From Microbotryum violaceum (taxonomy: Eukaryota), in the NCBI GenBank assembly GCA_001244265.2, contig CDLV01000006.1, positions 1,674,001 through 1,738,000 on the forward strand: a stretch of DNA of 64,000 bases, read 5' to 3'. This document shows, one piece after another, positions 19,787 to 64,000 of the stretch; positions within the stretch are counted from its first letter, which is position 1; every line of letters begins with the position of its first letter. Both the position numbers and the translations under genes were made by a program. The notes beneath the pieces are model-generated. The model was not told where the DNA came from. It saw only the letters and a program-made list of their open reading frames with translations, and searched no databases.

Positions 19787-20249
19787 TTCCGTAACCCTTG
19801 GCGTCGGTGATCGATGCTGTACTGGCTCAATAACCTTTCGTTACCTGGTTGCAAGTTGTAGGTTAGTCTAGCCTTTGGCAAAAGTTTTCAATCCGTATAC
19901 ACATCAAACACACTTGCCTGGGACCCGAAACAGAGTAAGGGCACACTGCGAAGGAACTGCGATTGCATACTTGTAACAGTGGGGCACAATTATACAGAAA
20001 TGCGAAGGGGAAGAAGAAGAACAGAGAAGAAATACTGCAATACTGAAGACGGGAAGACGGCACAAGAAGAAAAAGAGGAAAGGGGATTAAAGAACGAACA
20101 TCCGAATACCCTTAGTGAAGAACCCCACGAGGAGAGAAACAAAAGAGGCATACATGTAGTGTGCGACGGGTGGTGAATGTGGGGACGACGCATACTGATG
20201 GATGGCGAAGTCGATATGAATATGGGTAGGTCTCGTAGAAGGGGCACAC

Positions 20250-23200
20250 TCAGCCACTGCCCCTTCGTTCGTCCGAGGGTGGATTGAGCAAGTTGCCACT
20301 CGAGCGACGGCGATCGCTCATGCCCGCAACCGAGCCGGCCGTGACCGATTCGCGACGAGACGACGATGGGTCGTTGACCGAGCCGCGACGATATTCGTTG
20401 CCAAAAACCGAGTTGCTCAACCCTCGTCGGGTCGGCTTCTCCTCAAGCCTAAAGCCGAGTCGAGAGAAGATGCGTAGCAAGTCGGCCTTCAACTGTAGCA
20501 GAGAGAAGCGCGAGCGAATGGTCAAATATAAGCGTGGAGTCAATTGGCCCGATGATCTGCGACTTACAATTGGCTTCGGCAAGACACCGCTGAACAAGGT
20601 CCCAGCTTGATTGTCGACGGCGCCAGCGTGCGAGCATACCGCAATCGTGGGCGTGTTCTGCGACGGGTTATTGGTCGACTTGATCATTCGAGCCGCCGTC
20701 TCGCCGTCAACGACGGGCATTTGAATGTCGAGGAAAATGAGGTCGAACTTGACGCCTTGTGCGGCTAGGATGGCGTCGCCGCCGTTGTAGACAACGACAC
20801 AGCGACAGCCGAGGCGGATGAGCATCGTCTCGAGCACCTTGGTGACGATAGGGTTGCGACCAGCGACGAGGCAATCGATCGTGTTGGCACGAGAACTGCT
20901 CGAAGGTACGGGCGTGGCGGGGATTGGTGCAGCAGCGATCGGAGCAGTGGGGACCGGCGCCGAGGTCGACTCCTGAATAGCGCGGGTAGGAGCGGGCGGC
21001 GAGAGCATCGAATACGCGTTGGCGTTCGTAGTGGCATTAGCGCTCGTGTCTGGCACCTCTTCCTCCAGCGACGGAGGCGACGCGCTTTCTTGCGTGTCCT
21101 CGAGCAACGATTTGCTCGAACTCGCCGTCTGGGCCGAAGTGCGTCGACGTTCATTGGGCAGCGAATGCTCCGAGGGCAAACATCGACCTGAATCGCTGAT
21201 CGATGTGCGACGCAAGCGTGACGGCAACGAGTTCCGTCTCGAATGGCCTGAAGTCCCACCAGGTCCAACCGTCGGGATGCTGGCTTGACGAGTCTTGAGC
21301 CGGTCGATCGCTGTGGGAGGCGCACCCGTGGGAGGGACCTCCGACGCTCGGCGCGAGTGCGAGGACTGAAGACTATAAGGTGACGACGGTGCGGTCTGGC
21401 GCGAGGGCACAGAGCTACTCGATGATGCCGAGGGAGACGACGGGGATGAGGGTCCCCGGAAGTCGACGCTCGTCGTACGGCTTCGGCTCGTCTTGCCTCC
21501 TGCTAAAGCGAGCGGGCGGTTATGCATGATCGGCGATTCGAGCGGTGAGAGCGTAGGCGGGAGGAGCTGTTCGTCGCGCATCTTCTTGATCACGTCGTCG
21601 TTCGCTTGCTTGAGCACGGTCAAGTTGCGGAAGTTGAATGTGCCAAAATCGTCGTGCGGCGAAGGCTCGGTCTCGGAACGTTCCCGCGCGAGGCGTCTCG
21701 AGGTCGAGGTGGAGTTGGAGCCGATTGACCTTGCGCCAGAGGACGAGACTGAGTTCTTGATGTCGGAGAGGTTAGTAGCAACGGTCGGCTGCGCACCAGG
21801 GAGCATGGGATCCTTGAATGTGCTCGTCGAACTCGTGGCTGCGACCGTCTTGACTTCATCAGGCTGAGTGTCTTCGTCGGTAAAAGCTTGCTCGGTCGCA
21901 CCTCGAGGATCGAAATAGTCCGTGTTCTCCGGGTCCGTCACATTGGGGACGAACTTGACTTCCCCTTGGAGTAGGTTGGCCCAGTCAATACCCTCGAGCC
22001 ACGGGTGCGCCTTAACTTCTGCAGCACCACCCCTTCCGAGGCGGCAGCTCGGGTCCGTACTTAGCAGGCGCTCCATAAAGTCCCGGGCTTCGGGGGAGTA
22101 CTCGACGAGGTCCTCGTGCCATTCGATCCGGTGCGAGAGAATGTTTTCGAAGACCTTCTCCGGCGTCTCGTCGTGAAACGGAGGTACCCCGTACAGGAAT
22201 CTGTGCATCGTACGCGAACAGACGCAGAGTTCAGCATACCAAGAACATCCAGCCAGTGTGCGAAAGAAGAAACTCACTCGTAGCAGATGACACCAAGTGC
22301 CCACCAATCGACACATGCATCGGTACCGACACCCAGAATACTCTCGGGAGCCAAATAATCCGGCGTACCCACGAACTTTTGCGGTGGTTCGACAAGAGCT
22401 TCCTGCCTAGAGGTAGTGAGGGGATCGACGTACGGGTTGGCGGCTGTCTGCGCGGGAGCTTTGTTGGACGCCTGATCGCCACTGCCCGACGAGCGTTCAC
22501 TTGCCGGCGTGTCGAGCGAGAACGAGTCCGTGATGGCCACGCTTCCAAAGTACGAGGCCGGCGACTGTCCGAGCGCATTTGCCGGGGTCGAAGACGGCGA
22601 CGACGACTGTGAAAGCGCAGGATCCCGCGATAGCGAACGCAACGAGTCACGCCCGGGTTCAAAACCTCGTCCCCGAGCGGTCGGCATTTGCGTCTGACGA
22701 CCGAGCAGACCGATTCGGCTCAGGCCAAAGTCGGTGAGCTTGAGATGGCCCTTGGAGTCGATCAGCAGGTTGTCTGGCTTGAGATCACGGTGGACGATCC
22801 CGGAGGCGTGCAGGTACTCAAGGCCGACGATGACCTCGGCAATGTAGCGCTTGGCCCAGTCTTCGGGCAGCTCGCCCAGATTCTTGACCAGCGCGCCACA
22901 GTCGCCACCGTTCAGGTACTCCATCACGAGGTACAAGTAGTCCTTGCTTTGAAACGTGTAGTAGAGCTTGACAACGAAATCGGACTCGGTCTGCGTCATC
23001 AGGATCATGCGTTCGGCCTTGACGTTGGTAACTTGATTCTTAGCAACCATGTCGGACTTCTTCAACGTTTTGATGGCGTAGTAGTCGCCCGTCGTAATCT
23101 TTTGCGCGAGGTAAACCGATCCGACTGAATGAAAGAATGAATCAGCGGACGGTCACACAGATCAAGATGGCCGGAGACCATACTCACAGGCACCCTTGGA

Positions 23201-26200
23201 GATCGGCTTGAGGATTTTGAAATCCTTGATCGAAGACGCCTTGGTTCGCGACGAAGGGACACCCGACGGGATGCGAGGTGACAAGACCGATGATCCAAGT
23301 GGCGAGCCTATTCCGCCGAGCGAGTCTTGAGGCGACAGCAGGGGAGATGTCAAGCCATAGAGCGAACTGTGACGACGGACCCTATCCTTCTCGGGGATAT
23401 CGAGCGCCTCGACGGCGTCGTTCGAGGGGAAAGGTTGCAGTGCCGGCGAGCCAAAGGGAGAAGAACGAGCCTCCTCCTTGGCCGCGGCGAGAGCTTCATG
23501 GGCTCGCGCTTCCCACTCCTGTCGTACCTTCTCCGCATACAAGATCGTGTTGCGGAGACGATTGACCGTATTGAGCTTGAAGCGGATTTGCTCTTCGGCG
23601 TCTTGAACGAGTCGAACCAGCGCTGCTTCATCGGCGACCGGTCGTTGCCATCGCATAACCGCTGCCAAATTGCTCTCAGACTATAAAGGTATGGACGGAG
23701 GAAAGGAATTCAGTGTCAGTGAATGCTCGACCAAGCGTCTCCGAGCAGCGTCCCAAGATCACTTACGTTCGGGCTGAGAAGTCGTTGATCTTGGATCGGA
23801 ATGTCTCCCGTCTCGTCGAGCACGGACGGGGTCGAGATCGAGAGTGCGGTCTGTACAATGTCATAAATCTGGTCCAAGGTCTTGTGCTGCGCCTTCCTGA
23901 CTTGGAACGGACCAGGACGAGCACTCGCAGCTGCACCGAGCGGGGACTTGAGGCCTTCGAGATAGCTGGGGGGTGTATCATTTGCCGAGGACTGAAGCAG
24001 TGGAATTCCTCGATACTCGGCGACGTTCTCGAGGCTAGCTTCGTCGATTGCAGCGGCAACGTCGTCGATCGTGCGTGCGAGTTCCTTGAGTCGATCGTTG
24101 CAGTCCGTTATGTCACCTTCGAGTCGATGGGTCTCGTTACACGTCTCGTTGTGCTTCTCAAAGAACCAAATCGGCGTCGCTCGCTCGCAAATGCGGCAAA
24201 GCACCGTCTCGATCGCCAAGCGCGGGTTTGGCACCTGGTACGCGACGGGGTCGCTCGCGCTGCGGCGATGCTTCGTATCGAGACCGAATCGAGCAAGCGT
24301 CTCTCCGACGGGGTCGTCGGTCTGGTCGGCCAAGGGAGCGGGGCGAACGACCCACATCGTGTGCGAAGGCGAGCCCGTCATACCGTCGAGCATGAGCATG
24401 CCTTTGCCCTCCATGGCTTCGTACAAATCTTCCGGTGACTCTTCATCGTCCGAGGATTGCGATGACGAGCCCACTCGTAGTCGAAAGTTGACCTCGACGG
24501 TGTGCGAGTCGTCAGCTTCGAGTTGTCGAGTTGCTTCGGCAAAGACGGCGGCATCCTCGGGGAACACAAAGTCGGCGATTCCGAAATTGAGGCATTCAGC
24601 GGGTTCGAGACTGTATGGAGAAGATTCAAAGAGTGATATCAGAAGTGGGACGTCGACAAAACCCTGAATCTAATTCATTACTGACCCGACAAGTTCTTGC
24701 CAAGCAGACGAGAGATATTGGAAGAGCTGGTCATCGAGCGTCAACTCCATCAACAGCGTCGAGCTTCGGATCTGCTCCACTGTCTGACGAAGATCTTCGT
24801 GGTGTGCCTCGGCGGCATCCTCGCTCGTGGCATCAGCGTCGACATCGTCGAACTGCTGCTGCGTTGGCTCAGAGTCGTCCGGATTTGCGGACTGTTCACC
24901 GAGATCGATACCGAGAGGCAACCATCTCGGAGCGCACCCGATGATCCCTTCTGGCATGGTGTTGGCGGCAGCGAGGACGGCGCCTGCAGAGGACGAGCAG
25001 CTGTCTCCCCGTGCGCGAACCTCGGGTGACTCCTCAGCCGTCGGTTTCGTGACGAACAGGATAGGCTCGGCATCGGCGTCGTCGCCCTCGCTGAACGACC
25101 AGAAGCCACGCTCTGCTTCCCACCACTCGATAACTCGACTGAGACCAGCGACGGCGAGCAGCAACTGGACGTACCACCCGCGACATGCAAGTTCTGGGTT
25201 ATCATCCCACGCCTTGCCGATCTGTTGCACGCGAGAGATGAAGTCGGAGCACGAGTGCGGATTCGATGTCAGCTTCGAGACGGGTGTATCCAGAATCTCG
25301 GTGGCGACGGTGATGATCTCTTGTAGCAGGACAATGAATGCTGGTTGAGCCACGCGGGAGTGTGCCGCGTTCGGCGTCGTCGAGGTTGCCGGTGAGCGCG
25401 ATCCATTCGAGGCGTTGCGCAGCTGCAAGGGCAGCGGCGAGTGCGAGCGCGAGTTGGATCGTGAACTATGGGCTGAGCCTGATCCCGACTTGGTAGCACC
25501 CTCGGCAAGCGAAAGCGACACGGCCGAAAGGTCCGCCGAGCGAGGTGCAGCCGTCAGATACCTCTTGCGAGGGGCAAGCGAAGCACGGCGAGGTGACTTG
25601 GCAGCCTGCGTCATTGAGGGTCGTCGAGGTTGCGGAGCGCCGGTCGAGAGCATTGGCGTGCGCATCCGCGATGTACGGGAGGACGGACGACTCGTCGCTC
25701 CGTCCGAGTCGGTGTTGGCAATATCGTCGCCATCATTGAGATCGATCGCCGCCTCGTTCTCCGAATCGATGTCGTAGGGTAGTCCGCCGGCGAACATGGC
25801 GTCCTCGTTGACGACGAGATCGCCGAAGCGGCCGTCCTCGTAAGCTGTCCCACCGATCATCGCGGTCGAGGGCGCCTCGTCGCTTCTATGCAACTCGGTC
25901 TCGACGTGTGCCGTGATACCTTGGATGATGCGACGGAGCTCCTTGTCGCAGTTTTCCTTAGCAGCCGAGAGGCGCGAGCGGATCGTATGGCGCACACTGT
26001 GCATTGAAAAGTTGGGCGTTTGCGACGTTGCAGCAGGTGGCTTGGGTCGCTTATCCTCGACAGCGGTGGGAAGCGGATCCGTGGGAGCAAGGAGGCCCCG
26101 AATGGGGAAGTGCGTCGACGTCGGGACCAGCGCCGGGGTCTGGTCCCAGTACATAGGTGAGAATGACACGCTCCCCGATTGAGTGTGGACCGTCGAAGAG

Positions 26201-29200
26201 TAGTTGCCACTCTTTGAAGATTCCGCAGACGGAGGGCCGATCGGACTAATAGGAGAAAAAAATCGATGCGACGTGCCCGCCGAGGCCGAGTTGCTCGAGT
26301 CGGTCGACGCTGACTTGAGTTTCGTACCTTGACTATAGGTCCGCACCCGCACATCTCGGTTGAGCGTGCTGAATGCTGGCCCCAGATTGAGCGAGAGGCG
26401 TGGGTTCTTGCGCTTCGTCTCGCTTCCGGGATCGCCACCCTCGCTGCTTGGATCGGATCCCGATGAATCGTGTTGCGCCGGCTTCGGTGGTTGCAAGCGA
26501 TTGCTTGCGACGAAACGAACGCCAGGTGCGAGCGCCCCGGCGGGAACGGTCGCACCGAATCGGCTCTGATACATGTTCGAGGCCGCTTGAGCACGCGCAC
26601 TCAAATCCTGCGCCGAGCTCGCGGTACGCAGCGCAGGTTTCGGGGTTTGAGGGCGCGTAAACTGCGACGACGTGCGGGAGGCGACGGGCTCGAGGGTATG
26701 CGGCGACGTCGCTTGGTCGCTCGGTGTACGGGGTGCACGCTGATCCGTGGGCGAAAGAGGGGAGAAGCTCGAGCGCACGGCGCTCCACCAAGTATCGATT
26801 TTGAACCCAAGCTTGCTACGACGACGTTTGCCTTCAGGCGAAGCGCCGACGTTGGTGCTTAGCGTCGAAGCCGTCCGTATGAGCGGCGCAATCGGCTCCG
26901 GCAGAGGCGGCGCAATCGGCTTCATGGGTATCGACGAAGAGGAAAGTTTGCTCGGCATGGATTGCAGCTTCAATCCGGGCGTCGTCGGAGGACCGAGGCT
27001 GTGAGTCGGAGACGAAGGAGTCATGGCAGCCGTCGTGGCTTCGAAAGGGTAGTATTGCTCTGCAAGAGATTCAGCAGCTCCAGATTAGAAGGCGAGCTTA
27101 GGTGGTCGCTTTAATTTTGCAAGTTCACGTATCACTTACCACGTGCTTTGCCCTTGCCCTTGTCATCAACCAACTCACCGCCTGTCTCGGCCTCGCTAGC
27201 AGCCCCTAGCGCAGGGGTCTGTTGCTCAGCTCGCATCTTGGCCGCCTTCATACGTTCGTATTCGTCGAGCCAATCGACCCATTCGACCTGCGCACCATTC
27301 CCACCTTCACTCTCCCCTTCGAATCGCGTGATGTCCCTCTCGACAATCTCCGCATCCGAAGCCAACCCCTCTTCGTTGGTCGCCTGTGACCTCGGTTGTA
27401 GCGATAAATCACTGAGCCACGACGAACCCCTCGCCAAGCCGGGGTGCGACCCACTGGACGATTTCCACTTGCGCATCTTGGCCGCTCGACTGGCGACGAT
27501 TATTTGCGCGTACTCGTCGGTGCTACTCTCGGGGGCGAAGAGGCCGCTCCCGGAGCCAATGTTGGTGGGGACGATCGACATGCGGTGGTTCGTCACTCGC
27601 AAAGATGAGCTCGGCGCTGCCCAGTCATTGTCGATTTGGCGCTGCGAGATTGAAGTTAACAGCTCGGGCGAGAGGAGCGCATCGCGAGCGGCGTTGGCGG
27701 CGAAAGGGGACAAACCCGCCGAGAGAGGGGAAACGCCCAGGTCGTGCTGAGGCTCGTCGAGCGAGGAAGAGCCAGTCATATCGAAAGGCGACGAGGAAAA
27801 CGCGTGGCTGAACGGTTGCGCCGCGCTTTTTGTCCGACTTCGGCCCGCGGACGAGGTCGAGGCAGAAGGGGGGAGGGACGGAAATGGAAAAAGAGGGGCA
27901 AATGCCGATGAAGTTGTTAACGGAGTCGCGGGCGAAGGGCCTGAATGGTGTCCTCGATCAAGACTGGTCCTACGCGATATAGGTCGTGATCCCGGTCGCG
28001 ACGAAGGATTTGACGAGAGTCGCGAGCGGTTTTCAGAGTGCGCCGGTGAAGCAGATCCCGATGCTGAAGCCGGCGAGTGCGCGCGCGTCGCAGATGGTGT
28101 TCGAGGCAAAGCGTTCTCGAGCGTCGGGAACGTAAAACCGTCGGATGCGCTGCCCACAGGGCTCTGCGTCAACAGATTCGGTCGAAAGTCGATCGCACTC
28201 CGAACAGACTCGGGGACCTTGGTCAACTTGATTGACTCGGCGGGGGGGGGAGCGGCCGGATATGGGCTCGAGAGCTGAGCCGAGAGCTGGGACCGGTTCG
28301 GTGCGCGCGAGCTCGTCGGTGAACCGGGAGCAAAGGGCCGCGGAGCAGAGACCAAGTTGATCGAGGCTCGTCTCGAGATGGAGTTGGCAGGCACTGACGA
28401 CATTGACGGCGACGGAGGACTCGAAGTCACAGCGAAAGCCGCGGCGGCTGCCGAGGTGCTCGCTCTGGGCGTCGAGTTGGACGAGCTTGCGTTGCCGCCG
28501 GCAGGCGAACTTGTGACGTCGAACAATCGCGACCTTCGCCGCGGTCCGAGGTCATCCGTAGGTGTCGTTGGACTCTGGCTTGGACTCGAGACGGCCGAGC
28601 TGACGGGGAGACCGCTCGCACGTCCTATCGACCGCACGCGTGGTGTCCAGTTGTTGCGAGCGAGGTCATGCTCGGAACTGCTATCGACGAGGCTGGGCGA
28701 ACGTTTGTGGTGCGTCGTCGCATTAGGTGCCGTCGTAGATCTGACTCGGGGTGCCGAGAGCGTAGAAGACAAATTACCCTGTAAACTCGGAGCGTTGATA
28801 TCCGGCAAGGCGACGATGGAAAGTGTCGGTGAGATATCGATATCTGCAAGATGCCAAGCGGGTCAGTTTGGTTCGTCCGATCGGGTCCCGCGAAGGAGAG
28901 ACGGGAACAGAGTGCTGACTCGCCTCCAAAAGGTGCCAGATTCTCGCGTACGAGAGGACTTCCTGCCCTTCCTCCGCCGAGGGCCCCTCGGCTTCCTCGA
29001 TGACCAATCTCCTCTTCTTCGTCATCGATGGCTTCTTCATCACCGTCTTCGTCGCCTTTCGAAGGCTCGCCATCCTCTTCAGGGCCCGAGGCTTGTGCTA
29101 ACGGCGATGGAAACAGGGGAGTAGTACTCAGCCGAACGCTGGAAGGTGTGGTGGTGGCTGAAGGGGCGATGACGGCGGGGACGGATTGAGTCGCCGAGGG

Positions 29201-29642
29201 GATTGAAATGGCCTGAGATGGGGAAGAGGGGTGCGACGACTCGCTCAATCCGAGTGGGGAAGGCGCCAACAGGTTTGTCGTCACCACGGTAGATGTAGCC
29301 AAAGGGGATCTTTTAGTTGTAGCCGTCGTCAACAAGCTCGAGGAGGAGCTGCTACCGCTATTGCCGCCGAAGCTGCTCGACACCGACGAAGGTGGGGCAA
29401 GATGGGCCGAAGATGTAGAAGCCTTGTCGTGGGTCGGCGAGAACATGCCGGTGACGTGGGGCCCTATGTGATGGCCCGATTCGGATTCACTCCCGCTCTC
29501 GAGGCTGGTGGTGTAGTCGGTGAGGCTGGCCGACGACGAGACGATCGCCGACACGGTGCCTCGTCGACTGCGCCGCGTCGAACCGACCGACGAGCCGGCG
29601 TACGTCGCGACTGACAATCGACGCGAGGTGATCGACGGCGGA

Positions 29643-29689
<47 letters not shown>

Positions 29690-30205
29690 AGGTGGTGGGG
29701 ATGACGATGTCGAGGAGGTTGGGGTCGACCCAGCGCGGTACAATGGACTCGAAGACGACGAGGACGAGGACGAGGCGGCTACGGTCGACAAGGGCGATAG
29801 GCGTGAGACCGTTCCTGACGATGAGGCTCTTGAGGCCAGGTGGGGATGGCGGCTGCTGCTGCTGCTGGGAGCGCCGGCGGAGCTGCCCGACGTAGCCGAC
29901 CGCAACGATTGGGCTTGCGCCAAGGGAGGTGAAGCTAGTGGAGGGGATCCCGAAACAAAAAAAGTCGAGGTCAAAGAAGAGAATGCAGCTGATTCGGTCG
30001 AAGATGACGGTGCCGGGGTCAGTAGCCGAAGAGCAATCGCGCTAGTCGCTGAGTTCGATCTGCCGCTGTCGCTCGTGCTGCCGGAGGCGCTAGCGGTGGA
30101 CGCTGCTGCTGCAGCTGTCCCAATGCCGAGATCCGACTGCGTGGTGCTGTTGCTCCCTGTGCCGGGAGTACGGCGAGACGAGTCGTCCTCTGGCACCTGG
30201 GCCAT
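20250..30205 (-). CDS. RIM15: Rim15/Cek1-family Ser/Thr kinase (PAS, C2HC finger, split kinase domain, receiver domain), ~3100 aa over ~8 exons
   Basis: AAKENCDKELRRII and WYVQLLLAVAGLSRVIEWW helices, PAS (YLSSAWQELVG), CRICE...HNETC, KPISKGA, HRDLKPDN, TDFGLS-insert-FVGTPDYLAPE, and C-terminal REC (FLDIQMP). Exons can be joined in frame. Confidence 0.9.
29643..29687. repeat. (GAC)~15 coding microsatellite encoding poly-Ser in Rim15 exon 1
   Basis: Perfect GAC run on the plus strand, read as TCG (Ser) on the minus strand. Confidence 0.9.
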
Positions 30206-51833: not shown

Positions 51834-56599
<4,766 letters not shown>

Positions 56600-56934: not shown

Positions 56935-59226
56935 ATGGGACGAAGTGGCCGGGTTTTGCCGTCCTCGACCCTCTCCGCGTTGTCCGCGCTCGCTTGGGCT
57001 ACTCTCTCCCTAGCAGCGGCTACGGTCGGCCACGCACCGGCACCGGGCAGACTTCTGCGGAGAAACCCGGATGGCTTTACCCCATCAAATCAGATACCGT
57101 ATGGTGGTGAAGCGTACTATACGAACTATCGGAAGAGCCCTGCAGTCGTCTTGACCGCCGTCGCCGCCCTTCTCGCGGGTGTGTACCTTTGCTTGTTCGG
57201 CAAGCGGGGCTGGCGTTTTACGACCGGCCTCTGCACCGCTTTGATGGGCCAGCTCTTGACCTGGATCATCATCACCAATGTCGCTGCCATCGATCTCAAA
57301 GGGATCGCCATCTGGGGCTTCTCCATGATCGGCTTTGTCGTTGGATTCGCGGTTGGTGCACTCTTGTGGCGATTCGGCATCGTCGTCGCTGGTGCCGATG
57401 GGGGCCTTGCGCTCGCTCTTGGCCTCAATCTTATGGTGCCGCACGAGAGCAACTCCCCCACGTCAGTAGCATCGCCAAATTTTATCATACGGAATGATAC
57501 TGATAATTTCAGCCTCATCAATGGGCCAATTTCTTGTTTCCGAACGTAGCTGGATCTCCATCGGGGTGCTCTCCGCAGTCTTTGCGATTTTCTGTCCGCT
57601 TCTCTCGCAAACGTATGGCATGGCAAGTCCAATTCCAGGCCTCTGCCAAATTCAATCGGGCTGACCTACAATGTTCTTGGAAATCTTGTTACGTCCCCCT
57701 GACAGGAGATAGCATGCTCATTGACGGGCTCATTCGTCTTGGGCCTTGGTATCGACTTATTCGTCGAGCAAGCTTCGGGCTTCAGCTTGGGATTGGTGAG
57801 CGCCAGAGCTGGTTGGCATCGATTATCGAGCATACTGATAGCATGTTTTTTGGCCATGAGTCCTATAGAGGTACATCTTCGACCAGCGCCACCTCCCCCC
57901 CGATTTGATGTATCAACCCAGCGAGGTGACTCGAGTATTTCTGGGCGTGATGTGGGGTCTGACGTAAGTACGCTGCAGCTGAGGAAAGCAGGCCACAGCT
58001 GACTTCACCCCAATTTCCCCCATAGAGTTATCGCAACCGTCTTCCAGACTTGGAGATGGCGCCAACATCCGTTCGAAAGGACCGGCGACGCGTTCACAAA
58101 TCTTCAGGGAGAGCGCACGGAGGAAGCCGCATGTTCGCTAAACGCCCGTTCGGTCAGGAGCGAGGAACGTCTGTGCGAGTCGCGTGCCCATACGTTCTCG
58201 ATGATTACTTGCGCCGGTAAACGCACGTCCTGGGGGCCGCAAAATCGGAGTGAAACCAAAATGGATCACCTCGCAAGTCTGGGTCCGATTCACATGAGTT
58301 GCACGTCGACCTTCGAAGGTCGACCCATTCCTACACCGCCAGGGGTCGTCCACCACAATGAGCCCCCGAGCCCACCCTCGTCGATCGTATCGACCGAATT
58401 TGCGCGCGGTCTCCATTCTCGCCCTCCCACCGAATACGATCACAGTCGGCGTATTGACCCACACAATTCCGTTGTGCTTCTTCGACCGATCCCTCGCTAT
58501 GCTGAGCCAAACCCCGGCCCGACGCCCTGTTACGAGGAGACGCTGACTGACACGACCCTGCGCCCGGTCGAGCCCGTCGGGGTCCCAGGAAGGCAAACAC
58601 CATCGTTCGAGGGCGTCGGGAGCGCACCTGGCAACCCAACCCCTGTAGGTAGCAACCTCACCAAGCGTACGTCGTACCGCAAGCCCGTCCCACCTCTCGT
58701 TGATCCACAGCTCGAGAATGCTGCGTCTAACATACCAAAGGGCAGCAAGTCCCCGCCGATTGAAAACGGCGGCGATAGCAGTGCCGCTCATGAGAAATAT
58801 GCCTTCGAAATCCCAATGGCGCAAGGGTTCGCTTCCGGTCGCCGTTACCCTTTGGATGAACGAGGGGATGACGCAATACTTGATGATTCCGGCAGCGAGA
58901 CGCCGATCTTTGGCGCGAACCGCCAGATCCGAGAGGTTGGGCCTCCTACGGACACATATGCTACCGAGTCGGCCACTGGCACGCGGCGGCAAGCCGAGGC
59001 TTCAATACGTCAAGTGCGACCCGTGCTCGTCTCGCGCTTCACTTCGACGACGGATCATCTTCCTATGGCGAATGGTGTACATTCTCCTCTCGGCGAACCA
59101 GGGGTGCAATTCGCGGCCCGACCCAATCCTCGAGAAATTGTACCCTCGGTCCTGTTCTGGCCTGAATGGATGCCCGCTTCTTCCCGCGGCAAATCACCTG
59201 GCGTCAGTTCTAGCCCGAAATCTTGA
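56935..59226 (+). CDS. DUF4203 (TM7S3/TMEM198-like) multi-pass membrane protein with a Pro-rich tail
   Basis: Signal-like N-terminus, GVYLCLFGKRGWRFT, Gly-rich TM helices, LTGSFVLGLGIDLFV, then a last exon reading through ORF 58201-59226. The 3' exon structure is uncertain. Confidence 0.7.
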
Positions 59227-59480
59227 TTGGATCAGGATCCGGGCGTCCAATTTGCCTTCATCTCCTTGCACCCTCATGAACGCACCGTGACATTTCCATT
59301 TTGAACAGACCAGCTTCTTTCTGTCTCTTACTTGGGGTCCATATAATTGCCTGCACTCATGTGCAGATAGGTATATATGCATACTAGTATGCATAAATTT
59401 TCAATATTTGCATGGTTCATTATTCATTACGATGTTCACGTTGGGGCAGAGTTTGCAACGAGTATCAATAGAGGGCAAGG

Positions 59481-61003
59481 TCAAGTTTCGGGTGGTGGTG
59501 ATAATAAGCGAGCTCGAGCGATGATAGCTGCTTCATCCTCGGGGGAGAGGGACTTTGAGCCGAAGACATCGGGTGGACGTGCTGGCTCTGTCAAGGTTGA
59601 AGTGGCCGCACCAGTGGTCGTAGGTTCCATCTTGATGCCATTCGACGACGATCGCATCGCCACCCTCGTCGCCTCCATCTTGATCGGTTTCTCCTGCTCT
59701 TGCTTGACCGGTGCTTCCTTCACCTTCTCCTTGACTTTCTCGTCGCCCTTCCTTCTCACCTCCTCCTCAACCCTATGCTTCTCCGCGCCTCTCTGCACCG
59801 CATCCTTCCAAGCCTCCTTGGTTCCCTCTCCAACCTTCACCTTCAAGCACTTGACCAAATCCTTCGTCTTCTCACTCACATCCTCCAAAATCTCCTCAAA
59901 TTGTTCATCCCTCATCCCCTCCCCTAACAAAGGCCTCAACTCGCCCCATTTCAACATTCTCGATTCCTGTTCCAAGCCTTTCAAGACCATCGTCAGATCT
60001 TGGATCAAAGGACGTATAGCCTCGGTATCTTTGTAGGCTTGCGCGGTGAGACGCTCTTCGATTGAGGAACCTTCGAGAGAGGCTTCGAGCATGGAGGCGG
60101 TGGAGATCAAGGGTGTGAGGTGGGAGAGGGCCATGGATCCGGAGATGAAGAGTTGGCGAAGGAATTGGATTTGTTCGTAGGGGAGTCGGTTGGGGAGGAG
60201 GAGGGATAGGAAGGGGTGGGCGAAGGATAGTCCGAGGGAGGTGCGGAGTATGATGTGGAATTCGAGAGCCGCGGTAGCGAGAAGGAAGAGGTAACGCCAC
60301 TGAGATAATGACAAAGGCTTAAGTTAGTTGGTGCAGGCACGAACCATCATCTTGAATCGTGAGATTCACGCACATAGTTGTTGACTCGTTCACTCCTCCT
60401 GAACCAAGAGATCATGTAGATAGACCCGAGCGCAACGACATAGAACCCAACTGTGGATTGCGCTCCACGAAAAACGACCTCCCTCTGCGCCGCCGGTTTA
60501 GGTTGCCAGGCCAAAGCGTCCATACCGAACCTCTCATAGGCCCATTTCAGACTCCCTTCATTCTCCAATACTAAAGCGGCTTGCTTGAGCGCGATGAAGA
60601 GGGGTTCGCCTTGTTTGCCTACTTTGTCGGGGTGTAATGATCGAGCGAGTCTGCGGAAATGTGATTTGACGAACGATGAGCCGCCGACTTCGACTTGTTC
60701 CCTTGTTAGACCGAGGAGGGTGTAGAAATTCTGGGAGAATAGGGTGCCTTGTTCGATGTAGACCGAAGAAAGAGTGTAACCCAGATAGGCCAGGATGAGC
60801 CCGATGCGAGCAAAGCGATGGTGGCGTTGGGCGCGTGAGTTTTGATGCGCGATTTGATCGGCGGACGCGTTGGGGGGAAGTCGCGGTTGAATTTGGGGCA
60901 AGAGGGTGTAGAAGCCTTTGAGGACGAATGAGGTCAAGAGTTGGGGCAAGACGGCCCAGAGGACGATCGAGCTCAAGTGGTGCGAAATGCCGCCGATTGC
61001 CAT
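59481..61003 (-). CDS. Membrane-associated DnaJ-domain protein
   Basis: Two N-terminal TM segments, J-domain (NFYTLLG...FRRLARSLHPDK...AYERFG), further TMs. One coding intron at ~60303-60372. Confidence 0.85.
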
Positions 61004-61038
61004 CGTTCCGTCTCGGCTCCTCGCCTCGCACAAAATGT

Positions 61039-62356
61039 CTGTCCGTGGGGGCGCAGCCAGGGGGAGAAGAAGTGGGGGTGGGTCAGCATCGTGTGATCGA
61101 AAATTCGAACGGCGAGCAAATTTTATAATAGTCGGATCAGATGTGTCTCAAGCGATCAAACACGCGCTTCATCCCCTCCAAGTCAAAAGAGCCCTTCGGT
61201 CACACGCCCCAAGTCTCGAGCCGACCGACCACTTCTCACTGTCCCGCCGCTGTCGCCGCTTCGATCCTAACCCAATCGCGCTCGATTGTAATGACATCCC
61301 CGCATCAACCTCGCTGCCACGCAGCAAGTACAACGACCCACTCAACACGTCTTCACTCCGTTCCCAAACATGATAGCACCATGTCCTCCCAATCGCACTG
61401 CCTTGGACTCGCCCAAGGCCAAACTGTACGCCAGGACCCCCTAAACAGAAACCGACTTTGGCCTCCCAAGTCGCCCCGCCTGTTATTAGGTCCGCGCCAG
61501 AGTAGATGATGTCCCCTCGAGAAGAGAGCACTAAGATCCAAAGCAAAAACCTCGAATCTCGATGCTCCGCTTTCCTTTCTGGTTGTCTTCCACCTTCTAC
61601 GGTCGAGTCTTTTTTTTTTGGTGAAAAGCCGAGAAAGTTTGGGTAATGACCGAGGGATGTGGGGGATGTCGATCTCCGCCTTTGACTCGGGATCTTTGGG
61701 GAAGCAGGGTTGTGTACTGGACACGGTCCCCGAAGAAGAAGAACCAAGCCCTTTTGGTTATAGAAGATCGACGTCCAGTCGTCCCTCTTGACTTTCTTGG
61801 CACGCGGCATTCCTGATCAACGTCACGTGAGAGAGCGGAGGAACAGAACGCGGTCGCGCCAAGTCGACGGTTCACGTTTCCATACTATTTCCCACGTGAC
61901 GACGAAGCACCGGTGCCGAGAAGAAGTGGGAGGAAAGGAAGATGGATGTACCGAGTGTTTTGAAGCGGAGAAAAGGTCACCCGTAGTGGAAGTTTCGGGT
62001 CTGCACCCGAGGGCACAAACGGTGACGACGAGGGACCGTTTCTCTACCACCCTCGTGGCGCCCTGATGCAGGCCCAAGCATGTGCAAGAAGACAAGGTGG
62101 GGACCACATTCGTGTAGAGCGGGGTCCCAACGCATCGAGCAGATTGAAGGTCGAACAGGGCGCCATTACAACCGAGTTGGACGCGATCGAACCGCGAGAG
62201 AGAACGGACACCAGAGACGAGATGAAACAGAGAGACGGGAAAGCCACGAGACAAGGAGCGCGTGGAACGAAGGACTCGTGGGTATGACGAGTTGTGGGAC
62301 CCTTTTACTTTTGCAATAGATCATTTCCGGGGTAGAGGGAGGGAGGAAAGACTTAC
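61039..62356 (-). other. Predicted 1318-nt 5'-UTR intron of the J-protein gene containing an extended foldback; candidate structured ncRNA
   Basis: Minus strand: GTAAGT donor at 62356, GCTGAC branch site at ~61085, pyrimidine tract, CAG at 61039, about 35 nt before the ATG. Many collinear nested inverted repeats inside. Confidence 0.55.
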
Positions 62357-62501
62357 CGGTTAGGGACGAATCCGGATGACGTGGTCGTGAACGGCGAGGA
62401 AAACGGTGGAGGACAAGCGACGGACTCGACTTGCGCGCGGATGGCTTCTTTGCCCTCATCCCCAACCTCACTCGTCCTCTGGCGTCGCCATCTTTGAAAC
62501 G

Positions 62502-63738
62502 ATGGGCCCTCCCGACAAGCTCAGCACGGACGTTAGCGAGGCTACACCCGCCACAACTCAGTCCGCAAATGCCTCGGCGCCGATCCCAGCGCGCGATCCC
62601 AACGATCCCATGACGTGGGCCGAACGAGGCCTCTTCCCCATCGGCGCAGCTCCGCCCCTCAACCCAGAGTCTGACGCACTCATACCACGTGTAGAAACGA
62701 CGAGGGAGTCCGTAGATGAACGATGTTGGATAAGGACCAAGCAGACCAATGCCAGGAGGTGGGTTTCTCGTCGCTGTCCTCCCCGACGACAACGAGAAGA
62801 GAGCTGAGCTGAGCTGACACAAAAAGTTGTACTATTCGGCAGAGCACTGGGGAGAGAACCCAGAGTGACCATGTATTGCTACCTCAATTTCAAGAAGCAA
62901 ATTGTCGATCTCATACCCGTGCCAGGTCAACGCGGTAAGCAATAATTTTTCCCTTCATCTCCGTGCTCCGATCGTCATCGAGTTTTATCAGAACTGACCG
63001 GGTCACATTTCCCTGGTATGTGCGCACGCACCTCATCAAACGATTTGAACATACGCAGGCGCATACATGGCCAGGGACGCGCCCGTGAGCAAAAACTCGG
63101 GCCCCACTCACTACGTCCCGACCGGTCCACCGACGACCTTGGCTCCTCCACCTACGGTCCCTTTTTACCATTGGCCAAGGATGGAAGATCGCTATATCTA
63201 CATTGCTCGTGGTCGTACCTATGTTAATCGCCACCTCCAAGAATCTGGTGGACCCGCCGAGTCACGCATCTCGATCGAGGATCTGGCCGAGCGTTGCGAA
63301 CAGGGGCAAATGGCGCGAGCGGCCGAGCGCAAGCAAAGGGCCGTCCAACGCGCATTGGGGATGGTGGACCCTATCGAATTTGACGAGTATGAGAAGCTCA
63401 TCTCGTTGAGTGACGCGTGGTCACATTCTTTGCAGAGATTACACCTCCATGTGCATCGCATCTATTCGCCTGGGTGGAGGAATCTGGCGAGGTTGCCGGA
63501 GGTGTGGACGGATGGGACGGCGAGCAAGATGTTGGAGAGGTGTACGGAGACGCTGAGTGATGGGAGTGCGTTCAAACTTGTGGGGAGGATGTACGAGTCG
63601 ACGATAAGGGTTTTGGGTGAGCTGGAGGAGAGGAGGAGGAAGGGTGGGTCCGATCCAGGTGCGGGTATCGGAGGTGGATCGGGTGGGATCGTACCCCCTC
63701 CACTACCTCCCTCTATTGGTGGTCCTCCGCCCATGTGA
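62502..63738 (+). CDS. Hypothetical protein, 4 exons
   Basis: Exons join in frame through GT-AG introns: MGPPDK...NARR|ALGREPRVTMYC...QR|ELTGSHFP|GAYMARD... to TGA at 63738. Confidence 0.65.
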
Positions 63739-64000
63739 GGATATTTTATGCGCTTTTCCCGACGTTTGCATGTTGTTGTAATAAGTTGCCTTTGATCCTT
63801 TAACGCTTTAGGTTGAGCACCTAGCTTGACGCGGAACTGTGAACCTCGGACCAGAAAATCAGAAATTGCGGTTGGAAATCCTTTCAAACTTTTGGGCCCA
63901 AAAAAAGCTACAGAATTGAGTGTCGTCTTGACTGCCCAACAAATGTTGTGGCGATCGTCACCCACCCCGACCGGACGTTCGACCTGGCATGGCTTATATT

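Follow-up and report, generated by a model that had tools for sequence, protein, structure and literature searches.

A sense-strand rod predicted in an oversized intron of a Microbotryum DnaJ-domain gene, and its possible part in bringing the splice sites together

The window analyzed here is a stretch of 64,000 nucleotides (nt) from Microbotryum violaceum (GenBank assembly GCA_001244265.2, contig CDLV01000006.1, positions 1,674,001 to 1,738,000 of the forward strand), and all coordinates below count from its first letter. The region at 59.5-63.7 kilobases (kb) of the window comprises two divergent genes, of which the minus-strand one is a membrane DnaJ-domain gene with its annotated ATG at 61003-61001. 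Upstream of this ATG lies an intron of 1318 nt, which is predicted to fold in the sense RNA into a long imperfect rod and may thereby bring its own splice signals closer together. The elements of the intron are as follows.

61039..62356, minus strand: spliceosomal intron of 1318 nt with GT..AG ends, its junction being present in an RNA-derived contig of a relative
61082..61086, minus strand: probable branch-point motif CTGAC, from a motif scan; its branch A, 61083, lies 44 nt before the end of the intron
62060..62277, minus strand: 5′ arm of the rod, C/U-rich on the sense RNA, pairing with 61189-61419 in the minus-strand minimum free energy (MFE) structure
61189..61419, minus strand: 3′ arm of the rod, G/U-rich on the sense RNA, pairing with 62277-62060 in the same structure
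61420..62059, minus strand: interior (640 nt), which the rod loops out, with local hairpins and the inverted repeats I14, I15 and I18

The long intron of the DnaJ-domain gene

The intron begins with a canonical 5′ splice site (GTAAGT at 62356-62351) and ends with AG at 61040-61039, and a pyrimidine tract lies between the CTGAC motif and this AG (all on the minus strand). In three short introns of the window, the motif scan places a CTRAY motif 25-46 nt from the 3′ end. Contigs of four runs (X16, X17, X19 and X20) were aligned on 57000-64000. Because the short GT..AG introns of neighboring genes are skipped in them, the X19 and X20 contigs derive from spliced RNA. None of the listed runs is recorded as RNA. 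The X17 contigs are 100% identical to the window and are RNA by guess only, and X16 resembles low-depth DNA, with contigs of ~200-400 nt at a depth of ~3 that cross a short intron.

The contigs of X19 and X20 are ~93% identical to the window, and one from X19 connects 62357 with the exon-2 side. In the alignment, this joint breaks at 61021, leaving 11 letters unaligned; because the last five of them match 61034-61038, the skipped part is 61039-62356 and the leader of the relative is 6 nt shorter. The junction 62357|61038 is thus seen in one contig of one run from a relative, not from the window's own strain. The other seven joints among the same contigs skip 66-125 nt, which makes the long intron 10-20 times the local norm. 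On this evidence, 61039-62356 is a genuine spliceosomal GT-AG intron. The initial annotation had read an intron more than 10 times longer than typical here from the splice signals, and had named the spliced junction between 62356 and 61039 as a check; signals, length and junction all bear it out.

Folding of the intron and the ancestry of its arms

The MFE of the intron is -502.4 kcal/mol on the minus strand and -451.9 kcal/mol on the plus strand. Against 60 whole-length dinucleotide shuffles, the minus strand gave a z score of -3.13, and none of the 60 reached the native energy. The left half of the intron is C-rich (GC skew -0.4) and the right half G/A-rich (+0.2), and shuffling within six blocks was used to keep this gradient; under this treatment, z was -5.04 for the minus (sense) strand, with 0 of 57 shuffles reaching the native value, and -1.61 for the plus strand (69 shuffles). 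Twelve control segments of 1318 nt from the window, treated in the same way, had a mean z of -0.12 (standard deviation 1.11, range -2.40 to +2.05). The lowest value among these 12, -2.2 to -2.4, belonged to the minus strand of 52000-53317. As modeled by this comparison of both strands with shuffles, which had been proposed beforehand as a check, the fold is real and specific to the sense (minus) RNA of the gene.

In the minus-strand MFE structure, the rod consists of 174-176 pairs in nine helical blocks (89 G-C, 47 A-U and 40 G-U), and its longest unbroken helices measure ~16 base pairs (bp), G-U pairs included. The rod pairs have a mean probability of 0.92, 77% of them exceed 0.9, and the centroid structure keeps 173 long-range pairs. 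Twelve pairs of complementary segments had been listed in the initial annotation; all 12 left-hand strings and every partner string checked were found at the places given for them, the outer ones with coordinate sums of 123457-123476. The minus-strand MFE structure contains 10 of these 12 helices, whereas that of the plus strand contains five of the 12 and none of the six outer ones, in a different register. Folding the arms alone with a neutral linker gave z values of -8.96 (minus) and -3.96 (plus) against arm-wise shuffles, with 0 of 150 reaching the native energy, values that are inflated because the arms were picked after the fold had been seen. With G-U pairs forbidden, z was about -5 on both strands in the same register, and 0 of 120 shuffles reached the native energy. 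The DNA thus holds a true, old inverted repeat, to which G-U pairing adds a layer in the sense RNA only.

When one arm was aligned with the reverse complement of the other, 131 of the 203 aligned columns matched (64.5% identity; z = 8.9 relative to arm-wise shuffles); the mismatches comprised 52 transitions and 20 transversions, and another 43 columns were gaps. Forty-four of the 52 transitions leave a G-U pair on minus-strand RNA, against eight that would do so on plus-strand RNA, as had been noticed earlier for the mismatches of the outer arms.

The interior has modest structure that is equal on the two strands (z = -2.12 on the plus strand and -2.15 on the minus strand, 100 shuffles each). 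Its local hairpins include that of 61652-61677 with 61763-61787. Near the centre of the intron, 61821-61832 and 61890-61901 form a 12-nt inverted repeat that is 92% complementary and carries CACGTG in each arm; this repeated E-box-type palindrome could be a promoter element or merely part of a palindrome. Of the branched rod of ~1.1 kb that had been proposed for the whole, the outer arms of ~230 nt are strongly supported, whereas the 640 nt between them are only modestly structured. The accompanying remark that the inner arm is mixed or favors the plus strand agrees with the similar values on both strands.

Complementarity may also extend beyond the intron. When 60850-62520 is folded, the rod persists and exon 1 (62357-62518) forms ~100 additional pairs with the initial ~190 nt of exon 2 (60854-61045), an exon-exon pairing that takes in both the start codon and the 3′ splice site. 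Arms delimited by the splice sites gave z = -3.55 on the minus strand (0 of 150 shuffles reaching the native energy) and +0.70 on the plus strand, or -2.44 and -0.67, respectively, without G-U pairs; a palindromic global alignment of the same 1.67 kb gave a z of only 3.2. If the exon pairing is real, the models are suggestive, but no more than suggestive, of a duplication that took in the 5′ end of the gene and of a spliced messenger RNA (mRNA) that carries a hairpin around its AUG.

A possible zipper-like role and its alternatives

The most likely function of the fold, in a tentative judgment that stops a little short of even confidence, is that of a zipper-like intron structure by which the branch point comes within a shorter path of the 5′ splice site. 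An old inverted duplication within the intron would have supplied the arms of ~230 nt with 640 nt between them. On the sense pre-mRNA alone, these arms would zip into an imperfect rod of ~174 bp, confined to that strand because most of the differences between the arms are transitions that leave G-U pairs on it. The rod would loop out ~1.09 kb and reduce the 1273 nt that separate the 5′ splice site from the branch point to two linkers of ~78 and ~105 nt, and the shortened path would let an oversized intron be recognized where other introns measure 66-125 nt. [quoted passage not shown] That the arms pair in vivo, that selection maintains them and that they help splicing is inferred here, not observed. 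The initial annotation had left three options, namely an intron-hosted structured non-coding RNA (ncRNA), a fold that brings distant splice sites together, and a decayed foldback element; the second of these, built on a decayed inverted repeat, is favored, and the results neither sustain nor overturn the ncRNA.

As set out in the cited passages, a zipper stem of Saccharomyces cerevisiae pairs a stretch that follows the 5′ splice site with one that precedes the branch point, by at least 6 bp of high helix confidence, and its total linker measures 42-85 nt (PMC12350175). The present rod offers 174 pairs with a mean predicted probability of 0.92 (a thermodynamic prediction), and its single linkers of 78 nt and 105 nt are acceptable for a zipper stem, whereas their total of ~183 nt lies outside the range. 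Because of this total, the rod would work like a zipper stem without being filed as a member of the class. Like the stems of RPS17B, RPL7B and others, as far as the cited passages describe them (PMC12350175, PMC2536676), it would shorten the effective distance by intramolecular pairing within an unusually long intron of a short-intron genome. Unlike those stems, which in the same passages span roughly 6-20 bp, it is an interrupted helix of ~174 bp that loops out ~1.09 kb, and its linkers of ~78 and ~105 nt together exceed the 85-nt limit. It further differs in having a recognizable DNA inverted repeat as its source, a basidiomycete host and pairing that is predicted only.

Besides the excess of linker, a number of results given here and in the next section weigh against a zipper-like role. 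The complementary words by themselves do not exceed chance: the best anti-diagonal band of 6-mers has a score of 19, against 16.4 ± 2.6 in shuffles (reached by 56 of 300), and five other word-band settings were reached by 64-164 of 300 shuffles. Strict local alignment scored 25 against 21.1 ± 2.3 (reached by 29 of 300), and a BLAST self-search returned no inverted self-hit at E ≤ 10. The exact segments of the initial annotation are therefore correct in their coordinates but not, by themselves, above chance. All of these tests are blind to G-U pairs and to gapped short helices, and were thus not taken as refuting the fold. The native structure has 176 long-range pairs, against 113 ± 34 (maximum 195) in the block shuffles; the topology of the rod is not exceptional, composition alone promotes long-range pairing, and only the energy is exceptional. 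When the left and right halves were forced into a duplex, the energy of the locus (-388.0) was about the eleventh lowest among 157 minus-strand windows (mean -338.9, standard deviation 34.5, minimum -415.7, tenth lowest -389.1).

Chance complementarity, arising from a C-rich left half facing a G/A-rich right half, would accommodate these null results, the opposite GC skews of the halves and the ~113 long-range pairs that block shuffles already form. This explanation was already disfavored and is barely credible, since shuffles of local composition never reach the native energy, whether for the intron (0 of 57), the arms (0 of 150) or the fold without G-U pairs (0 of 120), and the 12 control segments stay within z values of -2.4 to +2.05. 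The forced-duplex scan was dropped as a test because GC content dominates its energies. A G-U-aware Smith-Waterman scan of the window was likewise dropped, its linear scoring regime (mean 128, maximum 265) giving no discrimination; its top scores fell on the plus strand at 20000-30000, probably through a G/T-rich composition.

A neutral relic is a more serious alternative, although we consider it unlikely. According to this explanation, an inverted duplication, or a foldback insertion of the kind of a miniature inverted-repeat transposable element (MITE), is decaying in a spliced intron; the G-U excess reflects strand-biased C-to-T change and the fold has no role. The arms (64.5% identity, z = 8.9) would serve as terminal inverted repeats of such an element, and, as in foldback or MITE-like insertions, inverted arms of ~230 nt enclose a non-coding spacer without any open reading frame (ORF) of a known family. 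The repeat is present at the DNA level, on both strands without G-U pairs, and the 20 transversions and 43 gap columns in its arms also fit neutral decay. Repeats in Microbotryum undergo hypermutation resembling repeat-induced point mutation (RIP), as stated in the cited passages (PMC4469406). The 44:8 bias could arise from C-to-T changes on the non-template strand alone, as all 44 biased transitions can be written in this way; composition-matched shuffles are skewed as well (35 against 10.5), and the G-U bias is thus written into the composition of the arms.

Against a neutral relic stands the distribution of G+U on the sense strand, which makes up 0.56 and 0.63 of the arms, as compared with 0.495 of the interior and 0.38 and 0.49 of the linkers. 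An excess confined to the arms argues against a general transcription-linked mutation bias, which should affect the whole intron, and the local pattern leans toward selection for pairing. The RIP-like hypermutation of Microbotryum prefers a TCG/CGA context, on which the cited passages (PMC4469406) are silent. This context occurs in 8 of the 44 biased transitions, against 7 of 86 matched C/G sites, and a RIP-like TCG signature in the arms is not convincing. Reading the sequence that flanks the arm ends (61189 and 62277) reveals no direct repeat that would be a target-site duplication, a weak test at such a degree of decay. The BLAST self-search found the arms in a single copy in the 64-kb window. 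The pair probabilities are very high for a repeat that has diverged by 35%. The absence of a second copy and of a visible duplication, and the strand bias of the mismatches, set the locus apart from foldback and MITE-like elements, as does the weaker complementarity that seems to run into the flanking exons, which an insertion does not explain.

A further point against the zipper-like role is that the intron differences listed for the relative, one substitution and two indels, are too few for covariation. The few that are listed do fit the rod, in which the substitution, T>C at 62167, replaces an A-U pair by G-U and a 1-nt deletion at 61334 sits in the large bulge; the other deletion, of 3 nt, shortens an interior T-run at 61618.

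Transcripts of the locus and their possible meaning

A 2844-nt contig of X20 has the short second intron spliced out, yet continues from exon 2 into the long intron as far as 62331. A 1069-nt contig of X19, distinct from the spliced one, spans 61254-62319 at a depth of 15.5, against 29.9 for the spliced mRNA contig. Much RNA retains intron sequence, which does not look like efficient removal. All four X17 contigs on 57000-64000 fall inside 61147-62315. The intron-body contigs of X17, X19 and X20 stop at 62315, 62319 and 62331, respectively, within a 16-nt span in two studies and 25-41 nt inside the 5′ splice site; this agreement is a weak hint, as contigs show neither strand, nor true ends, nor a reliable level. 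The stretches left uncovered, namely 61022-61253 in X19, 62332-62444 in X20 and everything outside 61147-62315 in X17, prove nothing. On the minus strand, a CT-rich tract at 62332-62350 precedes position 62331, and an unspliced leader would hold 13 upstream ATGs. The contig stops may mean an internal start after this tract, with an unspliceable leader containing the 13 ATGs, or may instead mean a processed, rod-protected fragment of the intron or a plus-strand transcript.

Such contigs would be expected if the intron body were itself the product, that is, if an excised intron, or a transcript starting at ~62315-62331, lasted as a rod-protected RNA of ~1.1 kb. It could take the form of a stable intronic RNA, a hairpin precursor for RNA interference (RNAi), or a leader blocking translation of the unspliced isoform. 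We regard a persistent intron-derived RNA as improbable; that the rod owes its maintenance at the RNA level to the persistence of such a product, as an abundant, mostly double-stranded and stable intronic RNA of ~1.1 kb, appears decidedly improbable. The shared stops, the contig depths, the confinement of the X17 contigs, the CT-rich tract and the upstream ATGs speak for persistence, within the limits of strand, ends and level just given and with X17 being RNA by guess. In addition, the cited passages on M. lychnidis-dioicae report one Dicer, two Argonautes and one RNA-dependent RNA polymerase (RdRP), all of them expressed (PMC4469406). Like the hairpin RNA loci that feed RNAi, the present locus is transcribed and has a long intramolecular duplex in an organism with Dicer, Argonaute and RdRP, as far as the same passages go. 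Unlike them, it has a heavily interrupted duplex in which 23% of the pairs are G-U, and uninterrupted helices of at most ~16 bp containing G-U pairs make a poor Dicer substrate; a hairpin-RNA role is conceivable in this model nonetheless.

The locus resembles those of stable excised linear introns and stable intronic sequence RNAs in that intron sequence appears in RNA-derived contigs at appreciable depth. It differs from the stable linear introns of the cited passages in that the contig ends match neither a splice site nor the branch point, and in that protection would come from the rod, not from the spliceosome. In S. cerevisiae, according to these passages, stable linear introns have their branch point ~20-25 nt from the 3′ splice site, and introns with a distance of 37-45 nt are unstable (10.1101/426049). 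The distance is 44 nt here, if CTGAC at 61082-61086 is the branch site; this value falls in the unstable class, and a stable linear intron of the yeast type is therefore unlikely. The covariance models of Rfam 15, including those of small nucleolar RNAs and telomerase RNA, gave no match at E ≤ 1 on either strand of 58000-64000, so the suggestion of a hosted RNA drew a blank among known families. The 64-kb window contains no transfer RNA. None of nine ORFs in or over the intron matched Pfam (best E 0.024, far below the cut-offs), which accords with the initial view that no credible protein is encoded there.

An AT-rich, TATA-like element (~61124-61129, within 61120-61135) is similar on both strands and is found ~120 nt before the annotated ATG, where it could be a proximal promoter of the DnaJ gene or serve a plus-strand transcript. 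It lies ahead of 61147, where the X17 contigs start on the left, as would suit an independent plus-strand ncRNA gene (e.g., for telomerase RNA) lying between the divergent genes and merely spanned by the "intron," an explanation that is very hard to credit. The plus strand does carry CCTAACCC at 61266-61273, equal to 1.33 telomere repeats, and a T10 run at 61610-61619. The repeat reported for the species in the cited passages is TTAGGG (PMC4469406), and the size of the intron resembles that given for the ~1,300-nt telomerase RNA of Ustilago maydis (PMC9564094). However, by a rough estimate, some one in five such regions would contain a telomere-like 8-nt word by chance. A telomerase RNA would have a template of ~1.5 repeats or more, a pseudoknot and a P6/P6.1 junction; of a template, the plus strand shows the 8-nt CCTAACCC only. 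The 9-nt UAACCCUAA template reported for Ustilago in the passages cited (PMC9564094) is absent. Plus-strand folding is not in excess (z = -1.61), no Rfam telomerase model matched at E ≤ 1, and no pseudoknot or P6.1 element was identified. The 64-kb window contains no telomere array. A 13-nt inverted pair, 85% complementary, joins 61260-61272 to 62358-62370, with the telomere-like 8-mer on each side: CCTAACCC at 61266 on the plus strand, and its complement in exon 1 just upstream of the 5′ splice site.

The exons of the host gene and its neighbor are the following.

60375..61038, minus strand: exon 2, with a 35-nt leader, the annotated ATG at 61003-61001, an N-terminal membrane segment and the J domain
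62357..62480, minus strand: exon 1 (leader) of the DnaJ-domain gene, an X19 contig being unbroken over 62357-62756 and joined to exon 2; the limit at 62480 is a guess, as the contig merges with the plus-strand gene, whose X20 contig begins at 62445
62457..62459, minus strand: upstream ATG of exon 1, which after splicing shares the reading frame of the annotated start, with 46 codons and no stop
62445..63738, plus strand: divergent neighbor gene, with its ATG at 62503 and introns of ~84 and ~125 nt, supported by contigs and joints in X19 and X20

The product of exon 2 is 100% identical to a 482-amino-acid protein of Microbotryum silenes-dioicae and 91% identical to a protein of M. intermedium, and its farther homologs, at 45-50% identity, belong to Sporobolomyces, Rhodotorula and Rhodosporidiobolus. 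These matches place the window in an anther-smut fungus, either a Microbotryum or a very near relative. Exon 2 alone matches the Pfam DnaJ family with 25.9 bits, under the cut-off of 27.8, and PF00226 is precomputed in six of seven homologs of the protein. A metagenome scan with the exon-2 protein gave 173 pattern matches and no relative. A Pfam scan found no family in the last exon of the plus-strand neighbor. The 5′ ends of the two genes seem to overlap head-to-head at 62445-62520, and one X19 contig passes from the minus-strand exon 1 directly into the plus-strand gene.

The relative of X19 has no indel in 62357-62459, and its leader, shorter by 6 nt, keeps the frame of the upstream ATG. 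To judge from the reading frame, translation of the spliced isoform could start at this ATG and add an N-terminal extension rich in arginine, serine and proline, and the intron could be a coding-phase intron of a longer isoform. All seven annotated orthologs start near the downstream methionine rather than at the ATG of exon 1. The initial description as an intron of the 5′ untranslated region accordingly applies to the annotated start, but would not apply to a longer isoform.

If a persistent RNA of ~1.1 kb is in fact produced from the intron, it could act in trans or feed the Dicer/Argonaute pathway of Microbotryum, and it could switch the DnaJ gene, by choice of start site, between a spliced mRNA and an unspliced isoform with a structured leader. 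The locus would then be a candidate source, in a plant pathogen capable of RNAi, of a stable and structured RNA derived from an intron. If the fold is a neutral relic, it is an ordinary curiosity. To our knowledge, reports of long introns whose splicing is aided by structure come almost exclusively from Saccharomyces and concern short stems. The zipper-like role, if true, would provide a basidiomycete case in which an inverted duplication supplies ~170 bp of pairing that keeps an oversized intron spliceable. The G-U-preserving decay, restricted to the sense strand and to the arms, hints at selection acting on the RNA, and the locus, if this role is confirmed, would be a testable example of the co-option of a repeat.

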